A DNA stretch of 36,546 nucleotides from Candidatus Aminicenantales bacterium (lineage in GTDB: Bacteria; Acidobacteriota; Aminicenantia; Aminicenantales; Saccharicenantaceae). The position numbers were made by a program. The stretch lies in the NCBI GenBank assembly GCA_049512315.1, contig JBEKXF010000033.1, positions 1 through 36,546 of the forward strand. The letters are read 5' to 3'. Every line of letters starts with the position of its first letter. Position 1 is the stretch's first letter. Below are positions 1 to 12,000 of the stretch, piece after piece.

Positions 1-3000
1 AGACGACCCCCGCGAGGTCGAGGGCGTTGAGCTTCGCCGCGAGCGCAAACCCGTCGATCCAGGGCGCGCCGAAGAGCTCGAAAGGCCTCGTCGTCCCCCG
101 GCCCTCGGAGACGTTGGTCCCCTCGAACGCGACCTGGCCGGGATAGACGGTCGCAGTCTCGAGGATCGGCATGTTGGGGGACGGGATGATCCAGGGGAGG
201 CCGGTCTGGTCGAACCACATCGTCCGCCTCCACCCTTCCATCGGGACGACCGTCAGCTTGGCCTTCCGCGGGAGGAACCTGCCGTTGAAGAGCCGGGCCA
301 GCTCGCCCATGGTCATCCCGAACCGTTCGGGGATGGGATAGAGGCCGATGTAGGAGCTCGAGCCGGGATAGTCGACGACCGGGCCTTCCATGTCGATTCC
401 GTTGACGGGGTTGGGCCGGTCAAGGACGATGAAGTCGACGCCGCTCTCGGCGCACGCCTGCATGGCCAGGGCCATCGTCGCGATATAAGTATAGACCCGG
501 GTCCCGACATCCTGGATGTCATAGATCATGACGTCGATATCCCGGACCATGGTTTTTCCGGGCGCCTTGCCGTCGGACTTCGTGTCGAAGGACCGCATGT
601 ACTCATCGATATTCTTGAGCATCCCGGGCTCGGGCTTCATCGACTGGCCATAGAGGCTGAAAACCGGCAGGTTGTACTTCTTGTCGTAGTAGAACGGGAC
701 GTACTCCCCGGCCTGGGCGTCCCCGCGGACGCCGTGTTCCGGCCCGTAGAGGGCGACCAGCTTGACCTTCGGGTTGGCGACCAGGAGGTCCACCGTGCTC
801 CGAAGCCGGCCGTCGGCTCCCGTCGGGTTCGTGATGAGCCCGACCCTTTTCCCCGTGACCAGGTCGAGATGCTTCTCGAGGAGTACCTCAACGCCCGTCT
901 TGACCCGTCCGGCAGCGAGAGGCGTCTCAGCCCGCCGGCCCGGCGAGCAGGCCGGGACGACTAGGGACGCCGCCAAGGCCAAAAAGGCCGGCCAGATCAG
1001 GGGAGTTCTCGACGGTTTTCGGGAAACGCATGCGGCCTGATTCATCATGGCTCACCCTCCTAGGGAGGAAGTCAGACGCGGACAAGAATATCAAGACCTT
1101 CCTCCGGGAGTCAACCGGCGTGGGGACCCTGGCGCAGAAATCATTGCGGCCGGAAATTTCAGGTTGATTCCTGCCGGGAAATGGTCTATAAACGAAAGAA
1201 GGATGTTTTCATCCGGAAAGGCCAGGGAAATCTTGAGGGGTAAGCGACCGCTGATGCGCGTGCTCGCGGCCTCGGCCGCCCTTCTCGTCTGCGCCCTCCT
1301 CTCCCCCGCCGCGGAGATTCCCTGCGTCTGGACCGGCGTCGAAAAGATCGTGGCCGTGGGCGATCTTCACGGCGACTATGACAACTTCGTCCTGATCCTG
1401 AAAAGCACCGGGATGGTCACCGACGACCTTCACTGGAGCGGGGGGGCCACGCACCTCGTCCAAACCGGCGACATCTTGGACAGGTGGACGAGGGCCAAGG
1501 ACATCTTCGACCTCCTGATGCGTCTCGAAAAAGAGGCCTCTGAGGCCGGCGGGATGGTCCACGTCCTTCTCGGCAACCACGAGGAGATGAACATCGACGG
1601 GATCGCCCTGGATTATCCCGACTACGTCACCGTCGAGCAGTTCGTCTCCTTCCTCCCCAAGGGTTTCCGGAAGGCCCGGGAAAAGGAATACATCTCCGGA
1701 CTTCCGGCCGCCGAGCGGGCCGTAGCCGAAACGAAGGGTTTGGACCTAGCTTCGGACAGCGCCTTGCGTCTCTTCTGGACGACCCTGAAAAAGGACGATG
1801 CGGCCAGGCGCGCCTACATCAATGGCTTCAACGAGACTTACGGAAAATGGCTGCTTCAGAAGAACGCCGTCATCAAGATCAACGACATCATCTTCGCCCA
1901 CGCCGGCATCAGCAAGGAATTTTCATCATGGAAACTCCGGGACATCAACGCCACTCTCCGGGCCGAGCTCGAATTCTTCCGGGGGCGGATGAGGAACCCG
2001 AACTCCATCGCTAGGCCTTTCCAGCCGAAGATCGTCTACAACTCCGAAGGTCCGCTCTGGTACAGGGGCCTGGCTTACATGGACGAAACGTCCTCCCAGA
2101 ATGAGGTCGACCATATCCTCGCCAATCTGGGGGCCCGGGCCATCGTCGTCGGCCATACGTATAGCCGTTCCGGCGGAAACAGTCCGACCGTCTCCCGTGA
2201 GATCGAGAGCATCAGCCGATTTCACAATAGGGTCTTCATCATCGACACGGGCATCTCCCGCGTCTATGGGGGCATTCCCTCGGCCCTACTCATCAATGAC
2301 GGTCATTTCAGCCTATGGGAGCCGCCCGAGGAAATGGACACGAAAGGCCCTGAAACCTCCCCGACGGTGGCAGGCCCATTGTCCGCCGAGGATCATGAGA
2401 AATTCCTCAAAGATGCCACCGTCGTCAAGGTCCAGAAGGGCACCGTGGCGGGACGGACGGAGCCCTGGAAGGTCACCCTAGAGCGCGGGGGGATTTCCCG
2501 GAAGGCGCTCTTCAAGTACATCGACCGGCGGCGGCCGGGGATCATCCCCGAAAGCTACAAGTACGAGCTGGCGGCCTACGAGCTCTGCAAATACCTCGGC
2601 CTCGATTTCGTGCCTCCTGTCGTGGAACGGGAGATCGACGGCCAGCCGGGATCGCTCCAGATGTTCGTCGAGAACTCCGTCAAGGAAGCGGAGAGAAAGG
2701 GACGCAGACTCCTGCCGGGCGATCCGAAAGCCTTCGACCAGGCCATGGATGACCTCAGGGTCTTTGAAAATCTCGTTTATGATTCCTGCACGAACGACGA
2801 GGACACCCTGGTCAGCCAGGACGACTGGAAAGTCTACAGGGTTGATTTCGCCCAGGCCTTCGAACCGCAGAAAAATACGGTCCGGGGATGCGAGATCCTC
2901 CAGTGTTCCCGGAAGCTCTACAAGAAGCTTCTCGATTGGGACCCGGACAAGGTTACGGCCCTTCTGTCCCCCTTTCTCAACAGGGAAGAACTGGGGGCCC

Positions 3001-9000: not shown

Positions 9001-12000
9001 CGGACTTTCGGCTGGTTCGAGCGGATCTTGTAAAGCGCGTCGGTGAGCTCCTGCTCCAGATCCTCCTCGCCGCGGGCGAGTTCTCCCGTCAAAACATCGG
9101 CCGCCCTCTGGTTGCCGATCCGGGCCAGGACTTCGGGGATGGCCTGCCGGACCTCCAGCCGCTCCCCGGCGTCCTGAAGATGCTTCCTCAAGACATCTTC
9201 GATCCGGGGGCCGTAGGCCTCGAGAACGTCCTGGGCCGCCTGACGGTTCATCGGGTTTCCGAGGAGCGGGATGATGAGGGGCACGTGCTCTTTCCGGAGG
9301 TGGACGGCCGCGCTGCTCAGGGCATAGTTGAGGACGTCGGGCGATAGGTCCCGGAGGAGGCTTTCAAGGGAGTGAAAAACGTCGGGTGAAGGCTCCATCT
9401 GGCCAATGAGCCTGGCCGCTTCCATCCGCTCGACCTCGGAGGCCGTTTCTTTCCCGACGATCTCGGCGAGGCGCCGCCCCATCAGGAGCTTGAACGAATC
9501 CAGGGCCATGATCTCGCGGACCTGGACCTCGAAGTCCTTATCGCTCAACGTCTCTTCAACCCCCCTGTAGAATACCTCGCCGCCGACATCGAGAAGGGAG
9601 TCCATGGAGCGCGCTTTCATCTCGTTTTCCTGGTAATCGAGGATCTCCATGAGCTCGGGCGTCAGCTTCTCCCTTTTGACGAGCTGGAACAGGTTCATGA
9701 CATAGAGCGTCGAGCTCTTCTCGCGGCTCTGGACGGTGTCGAAGATGAGGCGCGTCACGTCCATGTCCACGTGCTGCTTGACGACCCCGGTCGCGTCCTG
9801 CCATTTTCGCGTCAGGTCTTTCTTCACCACGCTGAGGTATTCGGCATAGATGATCCAGATGAGGGTGATCCAGACGAGGGTGAATCCGACGACAAGGATG
9901 CCGAGGTATCGGATGGGGACGCTGGGTCTGGCCTCCTGATACATAGCGAAGGACAGCGTGTGATAGGCGAGGAAATAGAGGGCGGCGCCGAGCCCCGCGC
10001 CGAACTTGTTTACGAACATGTCGATAAAGATCTTGGCCTTGTATTTAATGTCCGCCGGGACGGGGATATAAAGCAATTCCCTGACGGATTGGCTGATGGT
10101 CGTGTCGAAGGCCCTGTCGGTTCCCCTGAGTAAGCAGGCCCAAACGAGGAGCCCGGACGCGGGAATGAGAAATACGGCCAGCGAGCCCAGGAGGAGCACC
10201 GACGGAGCGACGAGCAGGGCCAGCCGGATGCCGAACTTTTTCAGGACCTGTCCCGTCGTCGCCAGATGGAAGACCGTGGAGAGGACCAGGATGGCCAGAA
10301 AAAACGTCGCGATGAAAGACGTCTGCGTGCTCTTATCCCAGCCCTGGGCCTTGACCATGAAGTTGAACTGGTACTTGACGAGTTGCCCGATGACCATGGC
10401 TGAGGCGAGGACCCCGGCGAGGATCCGGAGATAGCGGTTGCCCCGGACGGTCCGGAAACTCTCCAGATATCCGATCCCGGTGCCGGCCCTGGCCTTATCC
10501 GCTTCCGATCCCGCCCGGGTTGTCTCCCGCTCCTTGTGCAGGAGGTTGACCAAAACGAGCATGAGCAACAGGATGGCCGGGCAGACCAGGATGAGATTGA
10601 CGGGGTTGATCAGGTGGACCAGGCGCGAGGTCAGGAGAGAGCCGCCGATCCCTCCCAGCAGGCCCCCGGTCACCAGAAAACCGATGAGCCGTTTGGCCTG
10701 GTGGGGGTTGAAGAAGTCGTTGACGCCGATCCAGAACTGGGTGACGGACATGGCGATGAAGATATCGGACCAGAAGCTGAAGATGAATACGAAGGGGACC
10801 CAGCTCCGCTGGGCCAGCGGAAGAAGGGAGCCTATGATGAACGTCCTCCGGGTGTTCAGCCAGAAAACGAACCAGAAGAAGAGGAGATTCGAGGCGAAGA
10901 AGATGAGCGTGGAGGAGGCGTATGTTCTCCGCGGCAGGCGGGCGAGAAGCCTGGCGTTGAAGGCGATGACGAAGCCGATCAGGACGGCTGTGATAAGGTC
11001 CGCGTAAGGCCACCAGGCGGGGTTGACGCCGATCACGAAGCTTTCCTTGATCGCCTTGATGATATAAAAGGTGAACGTGATCAGGAAAAACTGGAAGAAG
11101 AGGAAGAGGGCGGACCGGACCTCATCCGACCGGACATCGGCAACCTTCCTCAGGAGCCGATAAAGCCGGGCATCGTTCAACGGACGCCCCCCTCTTCAGG
11201 CCGGCGGGATGTCAAGGTTTTCCGAAGCTCTCCAGGGCGGCGGCCTCATCCTCGTAGATACTGAGGACCCGGATCAGCCCCGTGACCTGGAAGATGAGGT
11301 ACAGCCTCTTGGAGATCCGGACGAGCTTGAGCTTCCCTCCAAGGTTGCTAGTCGAGATGTAGCTGGCCAGGATCTCGCCGACGCCGAAACTGTCGACGAA
11401 CTCGACCTTTTCGAAGTTGAGAAGGATGTCCCTCTTGCCGTGTTCCAATTGGGTCTTGACGAGTTGGTGGAGGGTCGCGTCCGTCATGTCGGAGCGGCGG
11501 ATCTCCCCGTCGATATCGAAAATGATGATGCTATTATAGTCCCGAGTCTTGATATCCATCGTTTCCCGCCTTCGCTTATGTGTTTATCAAAAGCCCCGGA
11601 GAAAGTCAATAAGGGGTGGCCCGGCCCCGCCGTCTCTGATAAAATGCCGGCGAAAGGAGGCTCCCATGCCGCTGATCGAGATCCACCTGCTCGAGGGCCG
11701 GACGGACGAGCAGAAAAAAGCCCTCCTCGCCGCGGTCACCCGGGCTGTTCACGAATCCATCAACGCCCCGCTCGAGACGATCCGGGTCTGGGTCCAGGAA
11801 TTCTCCTCGAAGGAGTACATGGCCGCCGGCCTCCTAGCTGCTGAAAAGAAAGAATAGCGGCCGACGGGGAGCGGCGGGGAGCGGAGTCTTCGGAGCGACC
11901 GGCAGAATTGCGGCTGAGCGGCTCGAAGCTGCAATTCTGGTAAATATCTGAATCAAATCTTGGTGAGTCTAACTTTTCACCCATCCGCTTCAGCCATCCC

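Follow-up and report, generated by a model that had tools for sequence, protein, structure and literature searches.

A candidate extracytoplasmic phosphorylation system in an uncultured Candidatus Aminicenantales bacterium, with Fam20-like kinases, a phosphatase-pseudokinase fusion and NTT-family carriers

Do secreted kinases encoded beside nucleotide translocase-like genes in an uncultured Candidatus Aminicenantales bacterium form a periplasmic phosphorylation system with its own ATP supply, as a first-pass annotation had proposed? The locus lies in a window of 36,546 nucleotides (contig JBEKXF010000033.1), the whole stretch of DNA that was analysed. All eight genes of the block were found as placed (1254..11559), and the positions and Pfam matches of the NTT/TLC carrier among the kinase genes, of its NTT-like 854-aa paralog and of the partner-switching set nearby were reproduced. 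The features are the following.

2-1048, minus strand: NamZ exo-beta-N-acetylmuramidase, a flank outside the system (Pfam NamZ_N, E 3.5e-80)
1254-3080, plus strand: signal peptide, Shewanella-like PPP metallophosphatase and Fam20-fold pseudokinase, 608 aa (Pfam, solved relative, motifs); translation could also start at the in-frame ATG at 1203
3104-4528, plus strand: single-domain NTT/TLC-family MFS carrier, 474 aa (Pfam TLC, profile match, Foldseek)
4638-4666, plus strand: candidate sigma-70-like promoter 5' of both stand-alone kinase genes (TTGACT-17-TATGAT, 10 of 12 consensus positions; a consensus match only, with 6 such sites found versus 2.5 +/- 1.8 in shuffles)
4701-5540, plus strand: signal-peptide kinase K1 (DRTxQN...IDHSR), 279 aa, catalytic residues intact (sequence, own clade)
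5590-6426, plus strand: signal-peptide kinase K2 (DRHxNQ...IDHSR), 278 aa, catalytic residues intact (model, fold comparison, profile)
6447-6863, minus strand: RsbW-like anti-sigma/Ser kinase (HATPase_c_2), cytoplasmic (Pfam E 7.5e-25)
6887-8563, minus strand: FHA-GAF-SpoIIE (PP2C) phosphatase, cytoplasmic (Pfam SpoIIE E 1.5e-47, FHA, GAF)
8616-11180, minus strand: NTT-HEAT fusion carrier (TLC+HEAT), 854 aa, without a cNMP-binding domain (Pfam TLC 42 bits, MFS_1, HEAT_2)
11212-11559, minus strand: STAS anti-anti-sigma protein with a VDSFG phospho-acceptor-type motif (TIGR00377, 58.4 bits versus a cut-off of 53.45)

As first reported, K1 and K2 have no Pfam call above cut-off, with weak matches only to FAM198, PI3_PI4 and Fam20C, and the count of 3936 homologues was obtained again. 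Fam20C reaches 15.2 bits against a gathering score of 26.8 (weak match in 33 of 120 members, best E 8e-5) and PI3_PI4_kinase 16.8 bits in K2 against 27.1 (83 of 120 members). The best curated bacterial family is TIGR03843 (SCO1664 family), weakly matched by all 120 aligned members (best E 6e-19) yet also below its cut-off (49.4, 27.3 and 21.8 bits versus 172.4). The K2 model is confident (pLDDT 91.7), and all Foldseek rows listed before rank 28 are Fam20 (best E 5.7e-9, TM 0.61-0.65). The predicted fold matches Fam20C with Z 20.2 (rmsd 3.2, 236 residues aligned), hydra Fam20B with Z 20.0 and PI4KIIalpha with Z 18.8 (PI4KII range 18.3-18.8); against the PDB, the kinase profile finds Fam20A (E 4.5e-12). 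Foldseek and Z scores thus agree on the Fam20 fold noted earlier, but PI4-kinase type II follows at almost the same level. The comparison does not tell protein, sugar and lipid kinases apart, which we count against our preferred reading. Because Fam20C, Fam20B and PI4KII are near ties, "Fam20-like" stands for fold and active site, and for neither family membership nor substrate. Membership of Fam20 proper was rejected for K1 and K2, since the score is under the Pfam cut-off and the insertion domain with its conserved disulfides is absent: positions 121-155 of the profile stretch over residues 199-306 of the Fam20A chain, and beyond residue 30 the aligned K1 and K2 sequences have 0-4 Cys. K1 forms its own clade in the tree (17 rows, support 99).

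The accessible text of PMC5865150 gives K133, D152 and D299 as catalytic residues of hydra Fam20, and alignment with the hydra residues places the Fam20 catalytic set at K80, E91, E96, D172 and D190 of K2, with equivalents in K1. By these residues both proteins are catalytically intact and can be predicted to be active kinases. K80 and E96, once described as invariant, are so within the order (20/20 and 17/17) but not outside it. The 145 stand-alone kinases from other Acidobacteriota mostly have Q at position 80 (Q 100, K 21, R 17), and 101 of them have N at position 96, whereas D172 is conserved in 144, N177 in 143 and D190 in 144. This replacement of the beta-3 Lys/alpha-C Glu pair in many distant kinases counts against the preferred reading. 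The DRH motif reported for the pair is present in K2 (the gene at 5590); K1 (the gene at 4701) has DRT instead.

The gene at 1254-3080 had been described as a metallophosphatase fused to the same kinase domain. Fusion and fold stand (phosphatase at about residues 21-345, kinase fold at about 375-608), but the kinase part is an inactive copy, with SCTNDED where EDRHQNQ is expected: the catalytic Asp-Arg is gone and a Cys is present. Across 20 aligned orthologues this loop never contains D-R, and in 19 it has the Cys. An active kinase was therefore rejected here, and the domain is considered a pseudokinase. It retains the ATP/metal-binding Lys, the Asp/Glu and the DFG-Asp. In the tree, loss of the catalytic Asp from fused kinase domains occurred twice, in separate clades. 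Next to the fused pseudokinase, the own order and 6 loci from the other set retain an intact kinase of the exported type. The phosphatase domain (Pfam Metallophos, E 3.6e-12) has the Shewanella protein-tyrosine phosphatase 1V73 as its best solved relative (E 2e-37). Its motifs are GDLHG, GDILDR, GNHE, PLWYRG and IDTG, so that the Shelph signature (GDxHG, GDxxDRG, GNHE and (I/L/V)D(S/T)G, with the Shewanella enzyme as nearest relative) is found with one deviation, DRW replacing DRG. The (I/L/V)D(S/T)G motif is the PPP-type motif of Shelphs (PMC2887360).

K1, K2 and the fusion are predicted to be Sec-exported. Signal peptides, scored by our own hydropathy rule and by eye rather than by a trained predictor, were called in 124 of 145 kinases, in 35 of 40 and 72 of 73 phosphatases, and in 2 of 50 cytoplasmic controls. 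Where the pseudokinase is a split gene, it has its own signal in 8 loci.

Both carriers exceed the Pfam TLC gathering score of 21 (44 bits for the single-domain protein, 42.4 for NTT-HEAT, which consists of an N-terminal NTT and C-terminal HEAT repeats). The single-domain profile matches C. pneumoniae NTT1 (E 3.2e-11), and NTT1 structures occupy Foldseek ranks 1-5 for its predicted model (E 2.6e-11, TM 0.70). For the same model, a second structural aligner (wide VIA search) put outward-open CpNTT1 at rank 15 (Z 23.9, rmsd 5.3, 418 aligned). Nucleoside symporters and other MFS proteins, YegT (Z 28.1) among the hits, came before it, a result that we count against the preferred reading. The carriers are far from characterised NTTs, as TIGR00769 (canonical NTP/NDP exchangers) gives 46.2 and 33.5 bits versus a cut-off of 387.2. 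Residue equivalences were read by eye off the profile alignment; E385 of AtNTT1, which we take to be a functional residue, corresponds to E280. For the AtNTT1 functional residues K155, E245 and K527 stated in the accessible text of PMC3306366, the carrier has R72 (K 21, R 8, Q 1 of 30), G139 and R412 (K/R in 89 of 91 rows from five groups, the alignment being ambiguous by three residues). The basic residues kept at K155 and K527 speak for the preferred reading, and the Gly at E245 against it. A divergent NTT can carry NAD, and another moved no nucleotide (Major et al. 2017, PMC5381601); this and the distance from characterised NTTs also count against the preferred reading.

The NTT-HEAT protein is the more constant carrier partner. 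In most loci outside the order a cNMP-binding domain is fused to it or follows it, and other such loci hold histidine kinases and receivers. Here no such domain is fused or adjacent, and the neighbours are STAS and FHA-GAF-SpoIIE. The PP2C, STAS and HATPase kinase set is complete at the locus, and no sigma factor was found among the 22 window proteins scanned. All 20 order loci contain an RsbW-like gene. Outside the order the partner-switch genes are not constant, SpoIIE-like matches lying near 5 of 55 loci, which counts against the preferred reading.

Kinase, phosphatase and carrier occur together far more often than expected by chance, and their link is tighter than first stated. Among 301 Acidobacteriota genomes (related and thus not independent), the kinase occurs in 69, the phosphatase in 60, an NTT-like gene in 115 and all three in 56. 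The kinase is present in 59 of the 60 phosphatase-positive genomes, and an NTT-like carrier in 65 of 69 kinase-positive versus 50 of 232 kinase-negative genomes. Around the best kinase of 55 genomes outside the order, an NTT was found in 12 cases, the phosphatase in 19 and both in 10, where we estimate about 1% per 20-kb window by chance. Two observations count against the preferred reading: for most copies of the kinase no carrier lies within 10 kb (43 of 55; 61 of 80), and 50 genomes have an NTT-like gene without the kinase. Five kinase-negative relatives (91-94% complete) have no match for NTT-HEAT, TLC, phosphatase or RsbW, nor for a full-length FHA-GAF-SpoIIE; three of them keep both flanks with one unrelated gene between. 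A second phylum is represented by intact phosphatase-kinase fusions in the marine Gammaproteobacteria Aliikangiella, Paraglaciecola, Aliiglaciecola and Kangiellaceae, and an NTT is present in 13 of 32 related metagenome loci of at least 8 kb.

Co-occurrence, co-loss and the second phylum strengthen the proposal of periplasmic phosphorylation with its own ATP supply, with the correction that the fusion is a phosphatase-pseudokinase. We give a probability of about 55% to an extracytoplasmic kinase/phosphatase cycle fed by ATP-for-ADP+Pi exchange and provided with a cytoplasmic control arm. Sec would export the three signal-peptide proteins, and the carriers would swap cytoplasmic ATP for periplasmic ADP and Pi, opposite to the way parasites use them; we infer cargo and direction from the electroneutral, gradient-driven exchange of characterised NTTs (PMC2606016). 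K1 and K2 would then phosphorylate envelope substrates, most likely proteins since the partner enzyme is from a protein-phosphatase family. The phosphatase would undo this modification, and ADP and Pi would return via the carrier to close the cycle. The pseudokinase may be a docking or nucleotide-sensing module tying the phosphatase to kinases or substrates, as for Fam20A-Fam20C. NTT-HEAT could be a regulated carrier or flux sensor, its linkage pointing to a putative cytoplasmic partner: the cNMP-binding domain in most lineages, the STAS/SpoIIE/RsbW switch in the own order. If true, this suggests that some bacteria send ATP beyond the inner membrane to power phosphorylation there. Our literature search found no paper describing such a kinase/phosphatase/ATP-carrier system.

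It is possible, though unlikely, that the substrate is an envelope glycan, a lipid or a small molecule, as for Fam20B (xylose) or PI4KII (phosphatidylinositol), the phosphatase reversing or editing the modification in the same compartment and with the same ATP supply. The near ties in fold are consistent with this, and lipid targets are suggested for bacterial families clustering with FAM20/CotH in the accessible part of PMC9758233. Sugar-pocket residues of hydra Fam20B (T114, Q115, Y148, Y253, H301 and K321, in the accessible text of PMC5865150) were compared, Q115, Y148 and Y253 not being reliably aligned: T114 is kept as T61 and H301 corresponds to H174 in K2 only, but H301 is T or N in most members and K321 is an Arg here (R193). 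NamZ, a cell-wall hydrolase, is found beside 15 of the 20 order loci, but it stays in 4 of the 5 relatives without the block. Going by cluster representatives, no glycan- or lipid-biosynthesis family recurs among the neighbours of 135 loci (within 6 kb), and the phosphatase, whose only solved relatives are Shewanella protein-tyrosine phosphatases, has the PPP-type IDTG motif (PMC2887360).

We find it doubtful that the system works inward, with outside nucleotides from lysed cells or prey being sensed by the kinases and pseudokinase, imported, and signalled by NTT-HEAT to the cNMP domain or partner switch. Uptake is the role of characterised NTTs (PMC5381601), the pseudokinase retains nucleotide-binding residues, the wide fold comparison gives nucleoside symporters high ranks, and outside the order NTT-HEAT goes mostly with a cNMP-binding domain, or with histidine kinases and receivers. 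However, a kinase/phosphatase pair alone scavenges nothing, with millimolar ATP in the cytoplasm an electroneutral exchanger would be expected to work outward (from PMC2606016), and the carrier is lost along with the kinases, as a supplier would be. Very improbable is the use of the kinases as weapons or effectors in other cells, like relatives of CtkA, HipA and LepB, with phosphatase and pseudokinase for self-protection and carriers as bystanders or for energy theft. The K2 model does resemble CtkA (Z 15.6) and HipA (Z 11.8), Omp85 genes occur in 8 Bryobacterales loci, and a 1611-aa protein (P0242) has two such domains without a signal peptide; but order and sequence are strictly vertically conserved across the own order, unlike weapon genes, kinase and phosphatase often share a polypeptide with an intact active site, and neither PADLOC (0 of 8 proteins) nor the plasmid collection gave a match. 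Inherited synteny without functional link is hardly credible and largely refuted already: the sampled genomes are related and outside the order the kinase usually lacks an adjacent carrier, but in two phyla the partnership persists through varied gene orders and orientations and with carriers that are single, HEAT, HEAT-cNMP or Ig-tailed, and the genes are jointly absent between kept flanks.

Our preferred reading, the exported phosphorylation cycle, joins elements of several known systems. The RsbU/RsbV/RsbW-type switch likewise has a PP2C phosphatase, a STAS protein and a HATPase kinase in one operon, but here an NTT-HEAT gene lies inside it and a sigma factor is missing from the window proteins. 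NTT and NTT-HEAT, both present at the locus, are known from free-living bacteria including one Aminicenantes sequence, with no function assigned there (Major, Embley and Williams 2017, PMC5381601), and no kinase or phosphatase neighbours are named in the main text of that paper; in contrast to NTT-HEAT-cNBD, the locus has the STAS/SpoIIE/RsbW set instead of the cNBD, and export is the direction proposed. Shelphs (1V73, E 2e-37) share the PPP motifs and (I/L/V)D(S/T)G, but the phosphatase of the block is fused or coupled to a kinase-fold domain and has GDILDRW for the usual DRG. The SCO1664 family and PI4-kinase type II, presumably cytoplasmic, are similar by weak TIGR03843 matches and by Z 18.3-18.8 for PI4KII, whereas our kinases carry predicted signal peptides and reach 49 bits versus a 172-bit cut-off. 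The spore-coat kinase CotH is also a bacterial atypical kinase outside usual cytoplasmic signalling and is likened to Fam20C, but its fold is far more distant (Z 11.8 with the K2 model), and no cognate phosphatase or ATP carrier is described in the accessible part of PMC12189002. Fam20 kinases are closest in solved fold and sequence, in catalytic layout (with an acidic residue five positions ahead of the alpha-C Glu), in the C-terminal helices, in the predicted signal peptide and in the pairing of an active kinase (Fam20C) with a pseudokinase (Fam20A), although Fam20A lost the Mn-binding Glu and the pseudokinase here the catalytic Asp. Fam20 kinases are characterised by Mn-dependent phosphorylation, with S-x-E proteins as substrates of Fam20C and Gal-Xyl as that of Fam20B, and they are activated through dimerisation. 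Unlike them, the kinases of the block are bacterial, are about 250 residues long when mature, lack the insertion of about 70 residues and the four disulfides, and are encoded together with their own phosphatase and carrier.

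The stretch from 1254 to 11559 is occupied by two convergent operons with four genes per strand. The genome that carries it is 96.6% complete, and the homologues of its proteins are labelled Ca. Aminicenantes or Acidobacteriota. The block and its neighbours in the window are the following.

1254-6426, operon 1, + strand: 608-aa phosphatase-pseudokinase protein, TLC carrier, kinase K1 (279 aa), kinase K2 (278 aa)
6447-11559, operon 2, - strand: STAS protein, TLC-HEAT carrier (854 aa), FHA-GAF-SpoIIE protein, RsbW-like kinase
11666-11857, + strand: small right-flank gene, kept in genomes without the block; we take it to be tautomerase-like from its MPLIEIH start
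12027-15007: two APC amino-acid permeases, one flank of the next gene
15136-16833, - strand: lipoprotein-like protein, 565 aa, no Pfam match
17003-22552: RND efflux set, the other flank of that gene
24000-28300: short ORFs only, one with a weak Peptidase_M78 match (E 0.02)
30397-36546: TPR-CHAT protease (1054 aa, - strand), 383-aa protein of no assigned family (- strand) and a divergent caspase-domain gene (+ strand) running past the contig end

From the eight genes of the block we infer a periplasmic phosphorylation cycle, the most likely reading in our view, with a probability of roughly 0.55. The two carriers would send ATP out in exchange for ADP and Pi. K1 and K2 would use it to phosphorylate periplasmic or envelope proteins, and the Shewanella-like phosphatase (Shelph) would remove these phosphates. 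The pseudokinase may serve in docking or nucleotide sensing, and the HEAT-bearing carrier (NTT-HEAT) would be gated by, or report to, the STAS/SpoIIE/RsbW switch. An anti-phage system was rejected, as PADLOC matched none of the eight proteins. K2 has no match in the plasmid collection, which speaks against plasmid spread. Rfam gave no structured RNA anywhere in the window, and a genome search found no further copy of the kinase.

K2 has 3936 homologues, and a profile search with its family gathered 3825 clusters at 50% identity. Against solved structures, a 120-row profile matched Fam20A (E 4.5e-12), hydra Fam20B (4.3e-9), Fam20C (6.6e-8) and PI4KII (1e-5). The K2 model (pLDDT 91.7) likewise matched the folds of Fam20C (Z 20.2), Fam20B (20.0) and C. 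elegans Fam20 (19.1), and those of PI4KII (18.8 and 18.3), CtkA (15.6), actin-fragmin kinase (12.9), CotH and HipA (11.8 each). In the structural alignment with Fam20, with residue roles as given in section 9 of PMC5865150, K80 corresponds to the beta-3 lysine, E91 to the second acidic residue, E96 to the alpha-C glutamate, D172 to the catalytic aspartate and D190 to the DFG aspartate. Fam20 has an insertion with its own disulfides, whereas the bacterial proteins have neither. The latter score under the Pfam and TIGR03843 cut-offs, and membership of SCO1664, PI4K or HipA was rejected on scores of this kind. The bacterial proteins would work like kinases of the Fam20 clade, yet they form a separate family. 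The choice between protein, sugar and lipid is beyond what a fold can tell; a substrate other than protein is in our estimate unlikely, and we keep an envelope protein as the presumed target. A set of 145 stand-alone kinases from other Acidobacteriota (L031-L165), skewed to Bryobacterales, keeps D172 in 144, N177 in 143 and D190 in 144. In about 100 of them, K80 and E96 are jointly exchanged for Gln and Asn. This swap, with the catalytic Asp, the Asn and the DFG Asp retained, could reflect a possible alternative mode of ATP binding. The protein P0242 (1611 aa, no signal peptide) has two such kinase domains amid repeats; P0137 and P0153 have kinase domains in tandem, one of them with the phosphatase as well. 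In a genome outside the order, locus L111 (G085:C23:43400-48900) holds an Aminicenantales-type block, possibly acquired by transfer, in which the pseudokinase is split and four kinases stand in tandem.

Among solved structures, the N-terminal domain of the 608-aa protein has relatives only in the Shewanella protein-tyrosine phosphatases (E 2e-37). The domain carries the PPP motifs and IDTG, a type of motif cited in PMC2887360 as dividing PPP-like from ApaH-like enzymes. The first-pass annotation had this phosphatase fused to the same kinase domain as K1 and K2. The fused copy proved to be a pseudokinase: the Lys, the acidic pair and the DFG Asp are retained, and Cys replaces the catalytic Asp. 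With this Cys, and D-R at the catalytic loop in 0/20 orthologues, an active kinase was ruled out. A second Cys follows 34 residues after the first; both are present in 18 of the 20 orthologues (one lacks both, one the second only), and a disulfide between them is possible from the sequence. In eight loci a separate gene encodes the pseudokinase, with a signal peptide of its own. Outside this order, phosphatase fusions often have an intact kinase; in the metagenome set, the catalytic Asp is kept in only 22 of 53 fused domains. The decayed domains of that set fall into clades of their own, separate from that of Aminicenantales (supports 94 and 100). The tree (FastTree, unrooted, 156 rows) included 30 of the 145 distant stand-alone kinases, chosen at random; rows gapped at catalytic columns, rows below 215 aa and two frameshifted loci were dropped. 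In L196, L207, L218, L222, L227 and L233, the gene immediately upstream of the phosphatase gene encodes an intact exported-type kinase. That the fused copy has decayed repeatedly next to an active partner suggests, by analogy, a regulatory role in the manner of Fam20A.

Both carriers score above the Pfam TLC cut-off and below that of TIGR00769. A 30-row carrier profile matched only the two solved NTT1 proteins, and Foldseek placed NTT1 at ranks 1-5; a wide VIA fold search placed generic MFS proteins, including nucleoside symporters, above NTT1. In our own reading of the alignment, AtNTT1 K155 corresponds to R72, E385 to E280, K527 to R412 and E245 to a Gly. Of 91 rows, 89 have Lys or Arg at the R412 position. 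Among 30 single-domain orthologues, 29 have K/R at position 72, where a wider set made up mostly of HEAT fusions often has Leu. According to PMC2606016, exchange of ATP for ADP plus Pi is electroneutral, and Lys-to-Arg at the K527 site lowers the affinity for ATP import and raises that for ADP import; by analogy, the Arg found here may hint weakly at export. PMC5381601 cautions that the cargo of divergent NTTs may be NAD, or that they may transport nothing detectable. Inward sensing or scavenging, with the carriers working in the import direction, seems decidedly unlikely to us, and we retain ATP export as the proposed direction. G000, the genome studied here, has one additional NTT-HEAT, on contig C15 (G000:C15:1879-4452), 31% identical and distant from the kinases. 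Two NTT-HEAT genes stand side by side in L014, L016, L024, L130, L163 and L275, hinting at a heterodimeric carrier. Five loci have, next to phosphatase-kinase fusions, an NTT with a C-terminal He_PIG (Ig/cadherin-like) domain, an architecture absent from the text of Major 2017:

L171:8942-10552, NTT-He_PIG carrier
L174:8298-9944, NTT-He_PIG carrier
L191:11934-13589, NTT-He_PIG carrier, followed by RsbW and FHA-SpoIIE genes
L230:19453-21084, NTT-He_PIG carrier
L233:4903-6558, NTT-He_PIG carrier

A basic-hydrophobic N-terminus occurs in 119 of 120 close kinase homologues. By a rule of our own (10-residue hydropathy of at least 2.0 after Lys/Arg), a signal was scored in 124 of 145 kinases, in 35 of 40 phosphatases of one set and 72 of 73 of another, and in 2 of 50 cytoplasmic controls. 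Of seven stand-alone metagenome kinases two scored, and three of the misses were broken fusions. This N-terminal pattern, which is not a localisation, may reflect export of kinases and phosphatase. That the kinases are a secreted weapon is very improbable in our judgement; we continue with the periplasmic cycle.

The kinase is found in 34 of 41 genomes of the order. Twenty loci, picked for long contigs, contain RsbW in 20, phosphatase, STAS and any NTT in 19 each, NTT-HEAT in 18, the single-domain NTT in 16 and NamZ (the left-flank gene) in 15. Five of the seven kinase-negative relatives were examined (G006, G016, G019, G022, G036). Searches with NTT-HEAT, TLC, phosphatase and RsbW found nothing in any of them, and FHA-GAF-SpoIIE gave partial matches only; the identical TLC search was positive in G000. 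NamZ persists in four of the five where the block is missing, which rules it out as a member of the system. NamZ is missing from G006 as well, where the absence may reflect a gap in the assembly. In G016, G019 and G022, NamZ and the tautomerase-like flank enclose one unrelated gene of about 900 aa; these belong to a single genus and therefore perhaps represent one loss event. Since the partners are absent with the kinase, the eight genes are gained or lost as a unit, and the partner switch is therefore tied to the system in this order. Association by chance is hardly credible.

Across 301 genomes of the phylum, the kinase occurs in 69, phosphatase in 60, kinase with phosphatase in 59, kinase with NTT in 65 and all three in 56. 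NTT-like genes occur in 115 and NTT without kinase in 50, both counts including one unpublished genome (G088); the NTT search undercounts, since G198 carries an NTT next to its phosphatase yet was missed. Outside the order, 61 genomes are positive. Six had no listed place for the kinase; near the best kinase of the other 55, an NTT was present in 12, a phosphatase in 19 and both in 10. The best 80 of 593 GTDB loci gave NTT in 19, phosphatase in 24 and both in 10, and 40 further phosphatase genes had a kinase nearby in 15, an NTT in 13 and both in 6. Beyond the order, the linked carrier is mostly an NTT-HEAT, with a cNMP-binding domain fused or following. The first-pass annotation had seen a fusion, or phosphatase with kinase, beside an NTT-like gene in three distant Acidobacteriota loci of 20. 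In our pooled count, a carrier lies within about 10 kb of kinase or phosphatase in 26 of the 61 genomes, including two loci chosen for a carrier already seen nearby. Linkage is therefore frequent but not universal, and is not the rule. In Bryobacterales (L031-L034, L038, L039, L042, L056; e.g. L032:8336-12464), a cluster recurs beside the kinase with an Omp85 barrel, a signal-peptide protein of about 530 aa and, in most, a different metallophosphoesterase. The ~530-aa protein has kinase-like motifs (GVTPG, K.D, WLNHTD.K..N, LIDFG); for the 538-aa exported neighbour, hhalign gave a probability of 0.4%, and Atlas named neighbours at just 0.81-0.82, so that a kinase identity may serve only as a lead. 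A membrane histidine-kinase-like gene (430-490 aa) also recurs beside kinase or phosphatase, often ahead of NTT-HEAT and followed by genes for a cNMP protein, a small histidine kinase and a receiver, in these loci:

L032, L038, L039, L055, L057, L059, L072, L088, L100

The best 80 of 556 metagenome loci comprise 52 fusions, and 15 have an NTT (13 of 32 among loci of at least 8 kb). In L174 the NTT is directly upstream of the phosphatase-kinase fusion. Homologues of L174, as proteins alone and not neighbourhoods, are named from Kangiellaceae, Aliikangiella coralliicola, A. marina, Paraglaciecola aestuariivivens and Aliiglaciecola litoralis. Phosphatase and kinase are on one polypeptide in named marine Gammaproteobacteria, and the idea is therefore testable beyond uncultured lineages.

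The periplasm is generally regarded as having no usable ATP pool and no ATP-driven signalling. A dedicated ATP supply with kinase, pseudokinase and phosphatase would add a new layer to the regulation of the envelope, with a bearing on the origin of Fam20 kinases. It would also offer a testable role for the bacterial Shewanella-like phosphatases and for the NTT and NTT-HEAT proteins of free-living bacteria, which Major et al. 2017 (PMC5381601) left without an explained function. More tentatively, with slightly less than an even chance, diderm bacteria from two phyla or more would have true reversible protein-phosphorylation signalling in the periplasm. NTTs would run in reverse to export ATP, envelope proteins would be acted on by Fam20-like kinases, pseudokinase regulators and Shelphs, and the HEAT carrier would link the cycle to cAMP or partner-switch signalling. 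A literature search, with most subscription journals and supplements outside it, found no report in which exported bacterial kinases of Fam20 type are coupled to NTTs; the supplements of PMC5381601 and PMC9758233, or surveys of kinase-like families in bacteria, may list the kinase family under another name. The system is real, conserved and undescribed. Every part comes from a known superfamily, and the combination is without a described counterpart in the literature covered by the search. If the wider reading is true, a function would be found for the orphan NTT-HEAT and Shelph families, and the system would be a prokaryotic counterpart of eukaryotic secretory-pathway phosphorylation, possibly its source lineage.
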